A DNA stretch of 43,797 nt, from the NCBI GenBank assembly GCA_037440985.1, contig JBBITB010000001.1, forward strand, positions 1 to 43,797, in the 5' to 3' direction. Below the pieces are notes generated by a model. The model was given only the letters and a program-made list of their open reading frames with translations. It did not search any database and was not told where the DNA came from. Position 1 is the first letter of the stretch. The number at the start of each line of letters is the position of its first letter. A program made the translations under genes and the position numbers. Origin of the DNA: Microcoleaceae cyanobacterium bin_387 (GTDB lineage: Bacteria; Cyanobacteriota; Cyanobacteriia; Cyanobacteriales; Microcoleaceae). This document shows positions 27,696 to 41,837 of the stretch, in pieces.

Positions 27696-28793
27696 TTACA
27701 ATGAATATAAAATTAAAGTGCCTTGTTGAGGTATTTTACCATTTTTATTCTGCTCAAATCGCCAATGTTGTTTAAATTTATTGAGAAAATTTTGACCTAA
27801 AATTCCATCTATTTCTAAGAATTTAAGAATGGAACTATCTAAGATGATCACTTCTAATTTATTAAGTTTTTTCTCACCTAATTTAACTTCTGCCAGTTGT
27901 GTGAGTTTTGCCGATTCTAAACCACAAAATCCTTCGACATTAATATCTTTCATCTGAGGGGGCGTGAGCGCGAGTTTTTGGGCGACTTGGGGGGACATAA
28001 AAATACTTTCTGCCCCTGTATCTAATAAAAAAGTAAAAGGACCTTTACCATTTATTTCGACTTGGGCTAACATGACTCCTAATTTTCCTTGCAAAGGAAT
28101 CGCGTTATTACGTTGTTTTGTGGGTAACTCGGAAGGAGGTAATAATTGAATATTCGCTTGAGTCGGATCAATAATTACATCAAATTTACTTAATAAATCC
28201 ATCCCAAAAACTCCTGATATATCATTAGGAATCGCGGTATTTGCTAATTCTAAAACACTTAAATTATCAATATTAATAGACTTATTTTTGAGAGTAGGTA
28301 AACGATGTAAAATCGCCTGAAAATTGGGACAACTATTACCCGCGACAGCATAATCTAAACGATCGCGACTGATGGAGGTTCCCTGAAGCCCCAATTTTTG
28401 GATCAAAGGGGAACCCACCATCGTTGTTACGGCTCCAGTATCGACTAAAAAACGTCCTGATACTGTCCCCACTTGGAAATCCAAGGTCCATAATAACCCC
28501 CCGGAAAGTAAATAAAGGGGTAAAGTTTCTGCCCCGGAGACTTGGGGACGGGGTAATTCTAAATCTTTGAGTCGAACGATCGCGTGAGTGCGAGGATTTG
28601 ATATCATTAGACATCTCGATAAACTACTGTAGGGTAAGTCTCCTATCTGCCATTGCTCCCGTTTTTGGGAGATGTTTGTTGTTACTGCCCAAGGTGGGGA
28701 TTTTGCCGACACGGGCGATATCAGAAAACTTCCCACGGAGGATAAGGAAAAGAGAAAAAAAGTCGCGATCGTTCCCCAAAATTCCATAATCAA
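27696..28793 (-). CDS. Secreted two-domain retropepsin-like (clan AA) aspartic protease
   Basis: 365 aa. The N-terminus is a signal peptide. There are two D(T/S)G active-site motifs in duplicated lobes: FLVDTGAVTTMVGSPLIQKLGL near aa 118 and FLLDTGAESIFMSPQVAQKLAL near aa 258. The two-lobed arrangement resembles pepsin. Confidence 0.7.
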   Translation of the reverse strand: MIMEFWGTIATFFLFSLSSVGSFLISPVSAKSPPWAVTTNISQKREQWQIGDLPYSSLSRCLMISNPRTHAIVRLKDLELPRPQVSGAETLPLYLLSGGLLWTLDFQVGTVSGRFLVDTGAVTTMVGSPLIQKLGLQGTSISRDRLDYAVAGNSCPNFQAILHRLPTLKNKSINIDNLSVLELANTAIPNDISGVFGMDLLSKFDVIIDPTQANIQLLPPSELPTKQRNNAIPLQGKLGVMLAQVEINGKGPFTFLLDTGAESIFMSPQVAQKLALTPPQMKDINVEGFCGLESAKLTQLAEVKLGEKKLNKLEVIILDSSILKFLEIDGILGQNFLNKFKQHWRFEQNKNGKIPQQGTLILYSL

Positions 28794-35803: not shown

Positions 35804-36270
35804 GGTTTTATTTCCTCATTAATAATCAAAACTTCGACTTGCCGTAACTGATACATCTCAAGGTGCTTTAGCTCCGATTAATTAGGCCAATGGAAAAAAG
35901 TTTGGTTACAGTGGTGTTGGGTTTTACTACGTTCAACCCAACCTACTGTTGCGTCACTTTTCCGAAACGATATGAATAAATGTTTTCCTCAATCATAACG
36001 TTATCTCTTGGAATGGGAAAATTCTTGCCGTTTCCCTGTTTCTATTGGCTTTTCTCTGGGATTTTTAATAATTATCTTAAACGTTATATAACTTTACATT
36101 TTGTCAACAGATAGAGCGGTTTGTTGTTGGCGGCTATGGCAGACCTCTCTTCTACAAGGAGAGCTTGGATATCACAAAATCATTAAAAAGTCAATATTTT
36201 CTGAAAAAATATAGCAATCCGAAACTATAACAGATTTAGGATTGCTATAGGACTATATATTTTGTATTTG

Positions 36271-36319
36271 AGTCGGTTTTAACCGACTTTTGCTATTAGA
36301 CAGGGACTTAAGTCCCTGA
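36271..36319. repeat. Hairpin repeat family H (agtcggttttaaccgact ... cagggacttaagtccctg), immediately 3' of the psb operon
   Basis: Two perfect short palindromes. A second copy at 38865-38915 is in the same orientation on the other side of the rubA-ycf48-psbEFLJ cluster. Confidence 0.6.
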
Positions 36320-36421
36320 GGGATTGTGGAAGAATGAAACAGCCAACCCCCCTAGCCTCCCCTGTTGGGGGGGTTGGGGGGGTTGGGAAGGTTAGGGGTA
36401 TCAAAATAATAGGAAACTTCC

Positions 36422-36541
36422 TTAGAGAGAAGAACCCAAACCCGCGTAAGCGCCGTAGAAGAAAATACCAAGAATAGTCAAAGCACCAAGTCCCGCGACA
36501 GTAGCAACAATCCACAAAGGAATTCGGCCTGATTGCAGCAC
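36422..36541 (-). CDS. psbJ: Photosystem II reaction-centre protein J
   Basis: Translation is (M)[38 protein letters not shown], 39 aa, from GTG 36541 with the SD aagagg 7 nt upstream. The ORF track missed it because it is under 60 aa. A spurious ORF at 36279-36590 overlaps it. Confidence 0.85.
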
Positions 36542-36595
36542 AATTTTTACCTCTTACTTCAAAAACACAACCAAAGAAAAATTCAATCAAAATGT

Positions 36596-36660
36596 TTTAG
36601 ATTTGAGATTTTAGACTTTAGATATTTGTATATAGAATCTAAAATCTAAAATCCTGACAT
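36596..36660. other. Strong imperfect stem-loop (gattttagactttagatat / atatagaatctaaaatc) in an unusually long (140 bp) psbL-psbJ spacer
   Basis: The inverted repeat was read directly. tagattt/aaatcta motifs are iterated about 6 times within 36590-36680. Confidence 0.55.
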
Positions 36661-36681
36661 CTAAAATCGTCCCAGTACCAA

Positions 36682-36804
36682 TTAGTTAAAGAAATAACTG
36701 GAAAAGAGAACACCGAGGACAAAAACAAGTAAAAGCCCCAAATAGAGAGAAGTCCGATTTAACTCCACTGGTTGATTATTTGGGTTGGGAGCACGTTCTG
36801 GCAT
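36682..36804 (-). CDS. psbL: Photosystem II reaction-centre protein L
   Basis: Translation is [40 protein letters not shown] (40 aa). It starts 9 nt after the psbF stop. The ORF track missed it. Confidence 0.9.
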
Positions 36805-36813
36805 GATATTCTC

Positions 36814-36948
36814 CTATCGTTGAACAAATTGCATGGCCGCGATCGCGCCCAGGAAGAAAATAGTAGGAACCGCGAGGGTATGAACAGCCAACCATCTCAC
36901 CGTAAAAATCGGATAAGAAATGGGCTCATTCGGGGTTCTGCTCGTCAT
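36814..36948 (-). CDS. psbF: Cytochrome b559 beta subunit
   Basis: Translation is [44 protein letters not shown] (44 aa), 20 nt downstream of psbE. The ORF track missed it. Confidence 0.9.
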
Positions 36949-36968
36949 CTTGTCAAACTCCTTTTCAA

Positions 36969-37217
36969 TTACTTAGCAATGAAATCTTTGATTTGGTTTT
37001 TGGATTCAAAGCGATTAGAGACAATGGGAACCTGTTCACGCGTTTGAGTAAAATACTCATTGGGGCGAGGGGTTCCAAAAGCATCATAAGCCAGGCCTGT
37101 ACTCACAAACAACCAACCCGCGATAAATAACGCGGGGATGGTGATGCTGTGGATCACCCAGTAACGAATACTTGTAATAATGTCACCAAACGGACGTTCA
37201 CCTGTGCTACCCGACAT
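36969..37217 (-). CDS. psbE: Cytochrome b559 alpha subunit
   Basis: 82 aa, [37 protein letters not shown]... The SD gaaggagg lies 7 nt upstream of ATG 37217. Confidence 0.92.
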
Positions 37218-37266
37218 TGATAGTCCTCCTTCAACAACAGCACTGAGTCTAAATTCGATTCTACTA

Positions 37267-38325
37267 TTAAGCGGCTTGCGTTGATCCCTGATATTTCAGC
37301 AGAATTCCATTTTGGCCAATAATGAAACCTTGCTCAGGTGTCAAAAACAAAATTTTGTACAAATTCGCGGGGACATTTTCCACATCCCTGTCTTTTTGCC
37401 AAGTTTTGCCCCCATCGACACTGGAAAGTAAATTACCACTACCCCCCGCAACCCATATTTCATTGGGAGTACGATAGGCTAAATCTAATAATCCCCAACT
37501 CGCAGCGCGATCGGGTTTAAAGGGTTTGCCCCATTCTGCCAAATTTTCGGGATCGCTAAATTGGACCTGGCCTCCGCGTTCCAACATCCATAACCGTCCA
37601 TCCAAACCAAAGCCCATGCTTTGCAGACGGCGAGAACTATTGCGGTTATAGGGATTCCAGTTATTTTGCCCCGGTTCCCAGATCGCGTAAAAACTCCCTT
37701 GAGAGGATACCGCGATATATTTCCCATCGGCAGAGCGAGTGATATTGCGAACTACCCCAAACGCGTCTTCGACTAAGGCTTTCCAAGTCTTTCCGCCATC
37801 TATGGTTTTATAGATCGCGCCCACATCCGTTGTTAATTCCGCGCTATGGGGAGCAATAGCCGCGATCGAACTGGGAGAGCCTGGTAATTTACTACTAAGA
37901 GGAATACGATTCCAAGACTTGCCCTGATCTTCGGTATGTAAGATCAGCCCAGGCTGTCCCACAATCCAACCTTCATCACCCGAAAAACTAATGGATGAAA
38001 GACGATAACGGGGATCATCCAGATCCAAACCTACTTGTTTCCAAGTATTTCCGGCATCGTTCGTTTCAAATAAAGTCGCCTCACTACCAACTAACCAACC
38101 ATGTTGAGAGTTACCAGTAAAGGCCAAATCTAACAAATTCGCCTTAGTGGGCAAAGTAATAACTTGCCAGGGGTTAGAACTTGTTGAGGGAATAGTGCTG
38201 CATCCCATACACAATAAAAGAACAGCACTTAATAAAATCGTAAATCGCTTCCAGAACTTCACAATTTTTTTACTGTAAACCGTACAAACTAAGTAACAAC
38301 AGGAACCCAAGGGCCAAGCCACCAA
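37267..38325 (-). CDS. ycf48: Photosystem II stability/assembly factor Ycf48 (HCF136), a BNR-like beta-propeller lipoprotein
   Basis: [10 protein letters not shown]..., repeated G(G/N)xTW(K/Q) blade motifs, and a lipoprotein-like signal (...[16 protein letters not shown]). ATG 38325 would overlap rubA by 56 nt. The alternative GTG at 38262, 8 nt after the rubA stop, gives a cleaner signal peptide. Confidence 0.85.
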
Positions 38326-38605
38326 AAATTAGCAAATTTTTTTGGGAAGCCGTTAAATTATTAACGCCCAAACCATAACCCAGATTTTCCTTAAATCCAG
38401 AGGGACCCTCATTCGCACCAATATTTTTAAATTGGGCTTTCGGAGAACTACAAACCGGACATCGCCATTTCTGGGGGATGTCCTCAAAAGCTGTTCCAGG
38501 GGTAATATTTCCCTGGGAATAACCCTCTTTTGGTTCGTAAATATAACCACAGGCTTGACAGACATATCTGTCTAGCTCTTGTACTTCAGTGGTGTGATCG
38601 CTCAT
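38270..38605 (-). CDS. rubA: Membrane-anchored rubredoxin (RubA)
   Basis: MSDHTTEVQELDRYVCQACGYIYEP...WRCPVCSSPK has two CxxC rubredoxin knuckles and a C-terminal TM helix ([20 protein letters not shown]). The ORF track's extra 70 N-terminal residues start at GTG and are rejected. Confidence 0.85.
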   Translation of the reverse strand: MSDHTTEVQELDRYVCQACGYIYEPKEGYSQGNITPGTAFEDIPQKWRCPVCSSPKAQFKNIGANEGPSGFKENLGYGLGVNNLTASQKNLLIFGGLALGFLLLLSLYGLQ

Positions 38606-38864
38606 ATTCCAATAAGAGAGCCCATAATGTCTGACTACAATCGGGGTTTTACTGGTTTTCCATTGGCAAAAACCCCTTTTTCCTAGGATACCACAAGGGA
38701 TTGGCATGAAAACCCCCGTTTCGCGCTCCTCCCTCACCCCCTCAAAAAGCAAAGCCGTTTTATTCTCACCCAAAAGTCCTACTGTAGTTACTGTACCGAA
38801 ATCTTTGATACCCACGCAAAAATAAGATAAACCCGCCCCATCCTCTACTCAAATACTAATTCCC

Positions 38865-38915
38865 AGTCGGTTTTAACCTATTTTTCCGATGAGTCACAGA
38901 CTTTAGTCCCTGACA
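38865..38915. repeat. Hairpin repeat family H copy (agtcggttttaacc ... cagactttagtccctgacag)
   Basis: Matches 36271-36319. It lies between the CobA-like gene and rubA. Confidence 0.6.
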
Positions 38916-38996
38916 GATGAGCGCGATCGTGTCCTAAACAGCCCAGCCCTAAAAAAAAGGGTGGACTGGCCAAAAAGGGCAAACAATGAATATAAA

Positions 38997-39605
38997 TTAA
39001 GGTCGATGACTGCGACGAATTTCTGTAATTTGATCCGCGATTTGTAACAAAGAAGAAGGCATTTCCGGCCCTGTCAAAATAATATCAATATGACGAGGAC
39101 AATTTTGCAACATTTCCAACACTTCCCCCTCTGGAATTAAACCCAAATTAATCGCGACACTTAACTCGTCTAAAACCACAAGAGAATAACGCCCTTGTAA
39201 AATAACATCCCTCGTCCACTCCCACAAACTCCGTAGAGATTGCATTTGTCCCTCATCCAAATGGGGAGTATCAATACAACGGGGAAGATCACAACGAATC
39301 CAGTCCAAATATTCCCCTAATCTCACCGGATGCTCCACCCCTTGACAAATACCTCCCTTCAGAAACTGCACCACTAATACCGGAGTCCCATGTCCCGCGA
39401 TCCGAAGGGCCTGGGCCATCACACTGGTAAAAAAAGTGCGTTGGGTAGAGGTAAACACCTGTACCAATCCTTCAACGGTATAAGGAAGTGTGGAGGCAAA
39501 ATTGAGGGTAGGGGTTTCTAACTGGGCAACCATAAGGCTTTTCTGTTGTTGTGACAAGTTTGATGAGTGAATCTTATCTTGCCATAATTTTAGCTTCTTT
39601 GACAA
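38997..39605 (-). CDS. CobA/BtuR (corrinoid adenosyltransferase)-like protein with degenerate P-loop
   Basis: Aligns by eye with E. coli BtuR: VQVFTSTQRTFFTSVMAQALRIAGHGTPVLVVQFLKGG matches [36 protein letters not shown], and LVVLDELSVAI...IDIILTGPEMP matches MVVLDELTYMV...TVIITGRGCH. The Walker A sequence [10 protein letters not shown] is replaced by STQRTFFTSV. Confidence 0.7.
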   Translation of the reverse strand: MSKKLKLWQDKIHSSNLSQQQKSLMVAQLETPTLNFASTLPYTVEGLVQVFTSTQRTFFTSVMAQALRIAGHGTPVLVVQFLKGGICQGVEHPVRLGEYLDWIRCDLPRCIDTPHLDEGQMQSLRSLWEWTRDVILQGRYSLVVLDELSVAINLGLIPEGEVLEMLQNCPRHIDIILTGPEMPSSLLQIADQITEIRRSHRP

Positions 39606-39977
39606 TATATAGCGTAGAAATGGGCTTTCTGCCCCAATAAAACACTAAATCTAGCCCCCTCTCTTGGTAAGAAGTGATGGAAAGGCGCACATATCACAAT
39701 CTCAGTGAGAAACCCCCGATCTTCCAGTAAAATTAAGAATGTTTAAATCGTCTGGAAAACAATACCTTCGCCAACAACGATAAAACACCCAACATCCCTA
39801 GTCTGTAGGGGCGGTGGATGGTGCGATCGCGCCCTACAGAAGGTGAAGCTATACTAGAGACATATCCACAAACTACTGTAGGGTAGGCTAATCCTGCCTT
39901 TGATCTGATTTTGGGGTGATGTCTTAGGAAAGCGGGTTTCTTTGCGTAAGTCCTAAAAGTAACAGTGAGATGAAATA

Positions 39978-41198
39978 ATGAAATCTATCCCTCGTATAGA
40001 ATATCTCAAAGTGCAAAATTATCGCGCTTTACATAATCTCGAACTCAAAAATCTTACCCCCTTAACCGTCTTTTTGGGGCCCAATGGCAGCGGAAAATCA
40101 ACGATTTTTGATGTCTTCGCTTTCCTGTCTGAATGTTTCACCGAAAGCCTCAGAAAAGCATGGGATAGACGGGGCAGATTTAGAGAATTACGCACCAGAG
40201 ATAGTGACGGCTGCATCATCATTGAATTAAAATATCGAGAGACATCCAAATCGCCTTTAATCACCTATCATCTCGCCATAGATGAGGAAAATAATCGTCC
40301 CTATATTGCTGAAGAATGGCTACATTGGAGAAGAGGCAATCAAGGTAAACCTTTTCGCTTTTTAGACTTCAGAAAAGGCGAAGGACAAGTCATTAGTGGC
40401 ACAACTCCTGATAAGGAAGAAGGCGAAAGGATTATCGAACAACTAGCATCACCTGAATTATTAGCAGTAAATACATTAGGACAATTTGCCAAACATCCCC
40501 GCGTTAGTGCCTTAAGACGTTTTATTACAGGTTGGTATTTATCCTATTTAACTGCGGATCATACTCGCAGTCTTCCCGAAGCAGGGGCCCAGGAAAGATT
40601 ATCTCCTACTGGTGACAATTTACCCAATGTTATCCAATACCTAAAAGAACAACATCCCCAACGGTTAGAAGAAATACTAAAAACCCTTTCTAATCGTATT
40701 CCACGCCTCGAAAAAGTCGAAGCTTCTATTATGCAGGATGGCAGACTTTTGTTGGAAATTAAAGATGCTCCGTTTTCTCATCCGATTCTGGCAAAGTTTG
40801 CCTCTGATGGTACATTAAAACTCTTAGCTTATCTGACAGTATTATTTGACCCGACTCCCCCGCAATTAGTGGGAATAGAAGAACCAGAAAATCATTTACA
40901 TCCGCGTTTATTACCTCAACTTGCCGAAGAATGTCGTTCGGCTTCTGCTAATACTCAATTAATGGTAACAACCCATTCCCCCTTTTTTGTCGATAGTTTA
41001 AAACCAGAGGAATTATGGGTATTATATCGAGATTTAAAAGGCTTTACCCAAGCTAAAAGAACCGCAGATATGCCCGGAGTTAAAGAATTTATGAATCAGG
41101 GTGCATTACTTGGTTCGCTGTGGATGGAAGATTTTTTTGATGTGGGAAATCCTCTTAAAAATTCTGGTGTTCCTCAATCGTTCACAGCTAAAAATTAA
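39978..41198 (+). CDS. ABC-type ATPase of the OLD/AAA_21-AAA_15 family (RecF/SMC-like)
   Basis: Walker A is [17 protein letters not shown] near aa 30-45. The Q-loop region follows. The Walker B/D-loop is [13 protein letters not shown]. The H-loop is [12 protein letters not shown]. There is a long insert between the two ATPase halves, typical of OLD/AriA/GajA-like ATPases. Confidence 0.8.
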
Positions 41199-41204
41199 GA
41201 GGAG

Positions 41205-41837
41205 GTGAGTATTTTGCATCTTGAGTTTTTAGTAGAAGAAGCATCCCTAGAATCAGCTTTAACCTATCTTTTACCCAAAATCCTGCCATCCACTTTTACC
41301 TTTAGAATTCATGCTTTCCGAGGTAAACCAGATTTACTGAATAAATTGCCTGACCGTTTAAACGGTTATCGAGCATGGCTTCCGTGTGATTGGAAAATTG
41401 TTATTTTAATAGATGAAGATCGAGAAGATTGTCTAAAATTAAAAAACGAACTAGAAAATAAGGCAATCTGGGCTGGCTTCATCACTAAATCTTCCTGCAA
41501 AAATGAGAAGTTATTTGAAATTTTAAATAGAATTGTAGTTGAAGAATTAGAAGCGTGGTTTTTCGGCGATGTTGAGGCAATTTGTCAAGCTTATCCTAAA
41601 GTTTCTCCCAATTTAGCTAATCAAGAATCATATCGCGATCCTGATGCAATTAAGGGTGGAACGTGGGAAGCATTAGAAAGAGTCTTACAAAAAGCAGGAT
41701 ATCATCAGGGGGGACTAGAAAAATACAAAGCTTCTCGCGACATCTCTCAATATATGAATCCTCAATTAAATCGCTCTAAAAGTTTTCAAGTATTTTATCA
41801 AAGTTTATTAGAAATCATTAATAGTGAGGAGGTATAG
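41205..41837 (+). CDS. Small TOPRIM-like protein (DUF4276-like), putative nuclease partner of the upstream ATPase
   Basis: It starts 6 nt after the ATPase stop. The probable real start is TTG 41214, which has the SD gaggagg 8 nt upstream. The N-terminus HLEFLVEEASLESAL matches a TOPRIM strand-1 Glu (hhhVEGxxE). VILIDEDRED at about aa 65-74 is a DxD motif. Confidence 0.55.
   Translation: MSILHLEFLVEEASLESALTYLLPKILPSTFTFRIHAFRGKPDLLNKLPDRLNGYRAWLPCDWKIVILIDEDREDCLKLKNELENKAIWAGFITKSSCKNEKLFEILNRIVVEELEAWFFGDVEAICQAYPKVSPNLANQESYRDPDAIKGGTWEALERVLQKAGYHQGGLEKYKASRDISQYMNPQLNRSKSFQVFYQSLLEIINSEEV

Follow-up and report, generated by a model that had tools for sequence, protein, structure and literature searches.

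The ATP:corrinoid adenosyltransferases CobA, CobO and BtuR (PF02572; PDB 1G5R, 1G64 and 4HUT) have a RecA-like alpha/beta fold that carries a Walker A loop of the form GxGKGKTT together with the motifs AGxG...VxxxQFxKG and hhhLDE. A related family is already catalogued in NCBIfam as NF005648 (PRK07414, 'P-loop NTPase family protein'), a curated equivalog without an assigned function, and its members are widely mis-annotated as cob(I)alamin adenosyltransferases. NrdR is a dATP/ATP-sensing repressor of ribonucleotide reductase (RNR). An NrdR box is a 16-mer of partly palindromic sequence in which six positions, C4, A6, A8, T9, T11 and G13, are highly conserved, and NrdR binding across species has been reported (PMC13584703). 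The spacing between two boxes is usually 15-16 bp; a spacing of 24-27 bp works as well, and most streptococci naturally have 25-26 bp (PMC12051234). NrdR has been reported in model cyanobacteria (bioRxiv 10.64898/2026.06.09.731130). Here we describe a gene of the NF005648 family on the minus strand (38997..39533) of a 43,797-nucleotide stretch of DNA from Microcoleaceae cyanobacterium bin_387 (assembly GCA_037440985.1, contig JBBITB010000001.1, positions 1 to 43,797), referred to below as the window. The gene encodes a CobA paralogue lacking the P-loop. Comparison with its relatives points to deoxynucleotide supply as its field of action, on account of a putative NrdR-type operator, a predicted translational coupling to the dCTP deaminase gene dcd, and a location in a thymidylate-synthesis island.

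The window protein matches the Pfam profile PF02572 (CobA_CobO_BtuR) with E=1.4e-28 (100.6 bits against a cutoff of 25.7) over residues ~21-176, and the Salmonella CobA structures 1g5r/4hut with E~4e-11, the identity to Salmonella CobA being ~25%. It scores 298.2 bits with NF005648 (cutoff 248) and is missed by the models for genuine cobA, TIGR00708 (80.1 bits against 167.75) and NF004637 (87.7 against 185). A Pfam match to ELP6 (E=0.24) is not significant. A large protein database contains 1687 homologues, the top ones all being cyanobacterial, 178 amino acids long and of identical loop type, and orthologues are 69-98% identical to the window protein. Cluster representatives from an exhaustive search split in two, genuine CobA with TG-x-GKGKTT and a divergent class with T-x-x-R-x-F-x-x, the latter taking in Prochlorococcus and Ca. 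Synechococcus spongiarum; the NF005648 family spans Nostocales to Prochlorococcus. Structurally there is no difference between the window protein and this family, of which it is a full-length, ordinary member. Among phages, the only homologue found was cobO of cyanophage PSS2, with 25% identity. The family is under strong purifying selection, since dN/dS is 0.04-0.13 in six comparisons; a decaying pseudogene or a frameshift artefact is ruled out by this low ratio together with the family-wide conservation of the degenerate loop. Literature searches on slr0260, PRK07414, COG2109 and NrdR with adenosyltransferase found no functional study of the family.

In the alignment, STQRTFFT of the window protein stands opposite GNGKGKTT of Salmonella CobA, and the full Walker A stretch pairs with FTSTQRTFFTSV, whose codons occupy 39420..39455 (minus strand). 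The G-K-T core reads T-F-F, K39 is replaced by a conserved Arg, and the second Thr of KTT is retained (FFT); apart from the Arg, the loop is variable across the family. A previous reading of the DNA made from the sequence alone (the sequence-only reading) had described an intact, apparently maintained CobA/BtuR-like homologue whose degenerate loop, STQRTFFTSV, had no Gly, Lys or Thr/Ser in register. Homology, intactness, maintenance and the loss of the G-K-T core are borne out, and the degenerate loop is common to all members of the family; the remark on Thr was overstated.

The extent of the loss was seen when 39 degenerate representatives were compared with 65 genuine CobA representatives. 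The Walker A loop, 97-100% conserved in the genuine class, is absent in all 39 of the degenerate one. Besides the loop, the degenerate class has lost positions that are 91-100% conserved in genuine CobA, the complete list being G36, G38, K39, G40, K41, T42, T43, G47, E73, R161 and the C-terminal K-H-P; E73 is replaced by V or P, R161 by P and G47 by A, and T159 is lost or weakened. The C-terminal ~15 residues of CobA with the invariant K-H-P are missing from the class, and the window protein stops short of this motif, its Pfam match ending at profile position ~157 of 172. The core equivalents of R51, Q63, G72, D127 and G160 are kept, as are the Walker-B Asp and usually also the Glu. The window protein shares both general motifs with CobA, and in it they read AGHGTPVLVVQFLKGG (AGHG..VLVVQFLKGG) and LVVLDELSVAI; the Walker-B-like strand LVVLDE is encoded at 39165..39182 (minus strand), and at least 90% of the family members have its Asp. 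Because the P-loop, the KHP segment at the C-terminus and further CobA-invariant residues are gone, so that nearly every CobA-invariant catalytic position is lost, adenosyltransferase activity of the window protein is very unlikely, and it is likewise very unlikely that the family acts as ATP:corrinoid adenosyltransferase. The name 'P-loop NTPase' is misleading as well, since the P-loop is gone.

The degenerate class has instead a conserved set of its own. In an alignment of 52 members, G49, W78 and W104 are invariant, and conservation is 90% or more at KGG-x-QG, R80, D122, G155 and P159; the window protein has every one of these family-specific residues. In an AlphaFold2 model (predicted local distance difference test score 87, with residues 1-15 disordered), most of the family-conserved residues lie either where a beta-strand reaches its C-terminal end or in the loop after the strand, a face that would be the one on which the ancestral enzyme binds its ligands. 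The best Foldseek matches of the model are CobA 4hut/1g64 (TM-score 0.70, E~1e-10), in agreement with a common RecA-like fold, followed at a distance by RecA-fold thymidine kinases (E~1e-4, TM-score ~0.5) and RecA. A Cys-x4-Cys pair (RCDLPRC) was considered as a metal site and rejected, either Cys being missing in several subfamilies. The N-terminal M-V/I-A-Q also belongs to the set that distinguishes this class from CobA: nearly all members outside the picocyanobacteria open with M-V/I-A-Q-(L/I/P) (window residues 1-6, 39516-39533), followed by a disordered linker of variable length that reaches ~60 low-complexity residues in some members. In one subclade (P0125, P0127, P0128, P0132 and P0134), a long low-complexity C-terminal tail ends in a conserved I/L-x-I-P-G-L/I/F. 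The N-terminal peptide and the tail motif look like tethered short docking motifs.

The intact minus-strand open reading frame (ORF) at 38997..39605 gives 202 amino acids if begun at TTG 39605. Its residues 25-202 correspond to positions 1-178 of the 178 of the NF005648 profile, and nucleotide similarity to the nearest relatives from other species (L089/L090) is confined exactly to 38997-39533. The true start is almost certainly ATG 39533, because orthologues are 178 amino acids long and begin with MVAQLE; the coding sequence at 38997..39533 would accordingly encode MVAQLE...RSHRP (178 amino acids). The 202-residue ORF appears over-extended, its additional codons (39534..39605, minus strand) being a portion of the 5' leader, and TTG 39605 falls within one of the two NrdR-like boxes described next.

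The proximal NrdR-like box, box 2 (ACGCTATATATTGTCA on the gene strand; 39600..39615, minus strand), matches C4, A6, A8, T9, T11 and G13 and has 12 consecutive bases identical with box 1 of E. coli nrdEF (TTGCTATATATTGTGT; PMC13584703). The distal box, box 1 (GGGCTAGATTTAGTGT on the gene strand; 39642..39657, minus strand), starts 124 nt upstream of ATG 39533 and also has all six key positions, so that the pair at 39600-39657 matches 12 of 12. The spacer between them (39616..39641) is 26 bp long, which belongs to the 'long' class of 24-27 bp and puts four helical turns between the box centres (PMC12051234). On both strands of the window, the strict 12-position pattern occurs at a single site (39603-39654), where 0.02 would be expected. 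The 26-bp spacer contains a small inverted repeat of its own, GGGC-AGAAA-GCCC, which is absent from other lineages; the spacers of other lineages often carry TTGACT.

The same arrangement recurs in relatives. Upstream regions align on TAGTGT-N26-ACRCTA, with constant spacing, ~113-135 nt before the ATG. Of 148 non-redundant upstream regions, 36 contain exact inner half-sites of the form TAG[TC]G[TC]-N25-27-AC[AG]CTA, against none of 3139 background windows; the spacer is 26 bp long in 30 of the 36 pairs and 27 bp in the other 6. A score of at least 11/12 is reached by 28 of 148 upstream regions and by 25 of 3121 background windows. The background count is inflated by a conserved coding stretch of rph found in many Nostocales (e.g., L015:3266-3323), TTCCCAAATGTTGATT-N26-CAGCCACATCTTCGAT, which scores 11/12 by the NrdR metric; the likeness probably arose by chance and is maintained because the stretch is coding. 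In the consensus of 55 distinct elements, A6, A8 and T9 of box 1 and A8, T9 and T11 of box 2, none of which served as an anchor, are 76-95% conserved. The pair is also found upstream of the distant members L081, L083, L085, L167 and L169, some of which are no longer beside dcd; that of L081, from Prochlorococcus, is ACACTACCTATAGTGT-26-CCGCTAGATTTCTTGT. As far as these alignments go, the NrdR-type box pair stays with the gene through rearrangements. A DNA operator is favoured because the spacing is fixed, the spacer sequence is variable and NrdR boxes are matched; an RNA hairpin is disfavoured on the same grounds. In having two 16-bp boxes, the six key positions and a spacer of a functional class, the window pair, a putative operator, resembles the operators of nrdAB, nrdJ, nrdDG and nrdHIEF; it differs from them in that the gene is not an RNR gene and that in many relatives good conservation is limited to the inner half-sites and to A-AT-T in the centre. 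The literature search found no paper tying NrdR to a CobA-like gene.

Gene order in relatives was examined in non-redundant loci for which 1.5 kb or more of sequence was present downstream (n=134) or upstream (n=131), neighbouring ORFs being clustered and their identities checked by Pfam. Upstream and divergent from the gene are rph, encoding RNase PH (108/131 loci), and an adenylate-kinase-like gene (100/131). Downstream, 83 of 134 loci have dcd in the same orientation no more than 1 kb away, with a median gap of ~66 bp, and dcd often overlaps the gene at the stop and start codons. When a convergent dCMP deaminase gene is counted as well, the number rises to 109/134, and some dTMP-synthesis gene is present in 112/134; a gene for ThyX or for a ThyA-like protein that has a pterin-binding domain lies further downstream in 69/134. 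Genes within this thymidylate island are swapped in place (loci L002-L166), dcd on the same strand for dCMP deaminase in convergent orientation, the CobA-like gene staying, and ThyX for a 498-residue ThyA-like protein with a pterin-binding DUF4346 domain. In some loci, such as L025:5727-7187 (+) and L030:6251-8359 (-), the dcd frame measures ~487 amino acids against ~199 and the thyX frame ~703 against ~240; insertions such as inteins are possible. Divergent members can have the same neighbour. In Prochlorococcus MIT 1341, rph is divergent and dcd, with overlapping stop and start codons, is followed by thyX; dcd is also immediately downstream in Ca. Synechococcus spongiarum, where the overlap is 14 nt, in P0127, where it is 4 nt and rph is divergent, and in P0124 and P0135. 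Ancestrally, the gene probably headed a dcd unit within a dUMP/dTMP-synthesis island, with rph and the adenylate-kinase-like gene transcribed divergently from it.

On balance, the evidence leans towards an NrdR-controlled, non-adenosylating binding protein that serves the supply of nucleotides along dC -> dU -> dT. NrdR would repress the gene along with ribonucleotide reductase at high dATP, and the protein would work by binding, without catalysis. Binding would take place through the remodelled former active-site face, comprising the KGG-x-QG loop, W78, R80, D122, G155 and P159, and the tethered M-V/I-A-Q peptide may take part in it. The protein could then be an accessory or regulator of the deoxycytidine-to-deoxyuridine-to-thymidine branch, Dcd being its most likely contact.

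Several observations weigh against this explanation. The outermost positions of the boxes are weak in many Nostocales elements (C4 of box 1 has 11% and G13 of box 2 has 56% conservation in the 55-element consensus), and only 41 of 137 upstream regions of the 60-90% identity class score at least 10/12. The single cyanobacterial nrdJ examined, a phage-like island copy in Synechococcus sp. SYN20 (L174), is without NrdR-like boxes upstream. Six divergent members (P0142, P0139, P0130, P0143, P0164 and P0133), about half of those examined, stand in unrelated contexts and not beside dcd; because five divergent members adjoin dcd and six do not, the link between the two genes recurs and is probably old, without being universal. 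The set of close relatives consists mostly of Nostocales, and the percentages given above partly reflect shared ancestry. The gene also stays where dcd gives way to dCMP deaminase, which argues against an obligate physical partnership with Dcd. The mechanism, including the partner, the ligand and the contact with NrdR, is drawn from genomic context. As to the SYN20 locus (CP047959.1 1272514-1281117), its adenosylcobalamin (AdoCbl)-dependent RNR is 64% identical to the cyanophage PSS2 enzyme and is surrounded by small hypothetical genes and a sigma-70-like gene; it looks like a prophage or island copy and not a housekeeping nrdJ. The RNR of P-SSP7 was not used for the promoter comparison, the adjacent gene being annotated as a class Ia beta subunit.

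Many cyanobacteria use an AdoCbl-dependent class II RNR. The protein might be considered as a corrinoid escort, which binds pseudocobalamin or AdoCbl without adenosylating it and delivers the cofactor to NrdJ or holds it there; we regard this as unlikely. Descent from a corrinoid-binding enzyme fits an escort, as does the position of the conserved residues in loops after beta-strands, on what would be the ligand face of CobA. Such a role would explain a place in the NrdR regulon, NrdR regulons consisting otherwise mostly of RNR genes (PMC2808921). The picocyanobacterial RNRs retrieved are named adenosylcobalamin-dependent ribonucleoside-triphosphate reductases, and with a triphosphate-reducing enzyme dCTP followed by Dcd is a natural route. 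Cyanophage PSS2, moreover, carries a class II-type RNR, thioredoxin and cobO together. In its full form, in which a non-RNR member of the NrdR regulon couples cofactor supply to dNTP demand and to the co-transcribed dCTP -> dUTP -> dTMP branch, the proposal is equally doubtful. An RNR gene stands beside the gene in none of ~155 loci, and neither RNR nor nrdR genes occur in the window or in the loci examined. The positions of Phe91 and Trp93 of Salmonella CobA are R and I in the window protein, and the C-terminal segment is missing. A scan of 36000-40200 against Rfam gave no match to a cobalamin riboswitch or another known RNA at E<=0.1.

It is quite improbable that an enzyme persists here, be it an adenosyltransferase or another nucleotide-using activity of the dC -> dU -> dT branch with a non-canonical mode of binding in place of Walker A. 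The retained Walker-B Asp, usually accompanied by the Glu, the conserved Arg in place of K39 and the strong conservation of the former active-site face could be read in this direction, and so could the lead position in an operon of nucleotide enzymes. The RecA-fold thymidine kinases are the second-best structural neighbours, but only at the distance given above. Replacement of G-K-T by T-F-F introduces bulky hydrophobic residues into a loop that varies across the family save for the Arg, and E73, R161 and the KHP tail are lost. To our knowledge, no RecA-fold enzyme is known that uses an NTP without a P-loop.

Tandem CobA proteins (NF005647/PRK07413, and CobO of cyanophage PSS2) provide a precedent for a maintained CobA-fold module without Walker A, with the difference that their inactive module is fused to an active one and the present protein stands alone. 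P0150, P0157, P0170, P0181, P0196, P0242 and P0249 have a degenerate P-loop in the N-domain and an intact GxGKGK(S/T)T in the C-domain. PSS2 (L173:23802-24836) has a cobO of 344 amino acids, and the RNR that this phage also encodes is of the single-subunit type. By analogy with these common two-domain proteins, the window protein could be an inactive partner of a genuine CobA/CobO, forming a heterodimer with it in cobalamin adenosylation. NF005647, of the 382-residue tandem type, matches residues 122-201 of the 202-residue ORF weakly, and Salmonella CobA is reportedly a homodimer in which each N-terminus covers the active site of the partner. Such a partnership is nevertheless highly improbable. 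No cob gene occurs in any of the ~155 neighbourhoods examined, and genuine CobA is found fused to B12-related domains (MeaB, CysG-like, CbiX and ferredoxin), whereas the degenerate class never is. An NrdR-type operator and coupling to dcd would be unexpected for a subunit of B12 synthesis. The degenerate N-domains of tandem proteins score higher with the genuine-CobA profile than with the profile of this class, which indicates independent losses of the P-loop; an origin of the class from such an N-domain is likewise not supported by the profile scores.

Finally, a tetrapyrrole- or corrinoid-binding factor working with the photosystem II (PSII) assembly cluster rubA-ycf48-psbEFLJ is hardly credible. 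What suggests it is the location of the gene, which in the window and its ~98%-identical relatives precedes rubA by 391 bp in the same orientation. Comparative context effectively excludes it, the cluster being absent near the gene in the relatives of 77% identity and in all others. The gene also has its own putative operator, and the literature search found no paper linking such a protein to PSII. The cluster, with rubA (38270-38605), ycf48 (ORF 37267-38325), psbE, psbF, psbL and psbJ, occupies 36422..38605 on the minus strand and is only a lineage-specific context. The sequence-only reading had placed the gene directly upstream of it on the same strand; order and strand are as described, but the gap of 391 bp between the stop codon and the start of rubA intervenes. 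When 80 genome loci and 80 metagenome loci were searched by tblastn with RubA, Ycf48 and PsbE/F/L/J, the cluster trailed the gene, besides the window, only in L001 and L087, or 2 of 134 non-redundant loci, both essentially of one species; in all other loci examined these genes were absent within 4-5 kb. The adjacency therefore did not hold up among orthologues, and a functional tie to the cluster is rejected.

The nearest other relatives (L089/L090) have the standard order of rph and the adenylate-kinase-like gene, then the gene, then dcd, and compared with such typical loci the window gene has lost its usual neighbours on both sides. Where other cyanobacteria have the genes for the adenylate-kinase-like protein and RNase PH, the window has a divergent pair (39978..41837, plus strand) encoding an AAA_21/AAA_15 ATPase of 406 amino acids and a DUF4276 protein of 210 amino acids, which match A and B of the PADLOC candidate defence system HEC-01 with E=9e-175 and 3e-94. 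No remnants of dcd, adk or rph were found in the window flanks. The position of the defence pair points to the participation of an inserted defence island in a local rearrangement, and by gene order the adjacency to rubA-ycf48-psbEFLJ is a product of lineage-specific rearrangement. The gene would have retained its operator and exchanged both ancestral flanks, the upstream one for the candidate defence pair and the downstream one for the PSII cluster. Signalling and STAND-type genes abound in the rest of the window (180-35803). Their products include an nSTAND1 NTPase, an SPFH/Band 7 protein, two proteins with WD40 repeats, of which one also has a Ser/Thr kinase domain, and several hybrid histidine kinases, among them a CBS-GAF-PAS protein of 1517 amino acids; retroviral-type aspartyl protease domains are present in the protein encoded at 27696-28793.

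What is new here is the family-wide list of lost catalytic residues, the linkage to dcd and thymidylate synthesis from Nostocales to Prochlorococcus, and the NrdR-type operator. That a gene adjoins a well-known cluster in one genome says little about its function. The label of cob(I)alamin adenosyltransferase given to this protein in thousands of cyanobacterial genomes is almost certainly wrong, and it inflates the completeness of the B12 pathway inferred in metagenomic surveys. The gene is kept even in streamlined Prochlorococcus and in sponge-symbiont Synechococcus, and therefore the protein probably does something important. If the explanation favoured here is true, cyanobacteria would have a hitherto unrecognized accessory factor in dNTP/dTTP synthesis, and NrdR would have a conserved target other than RNR.

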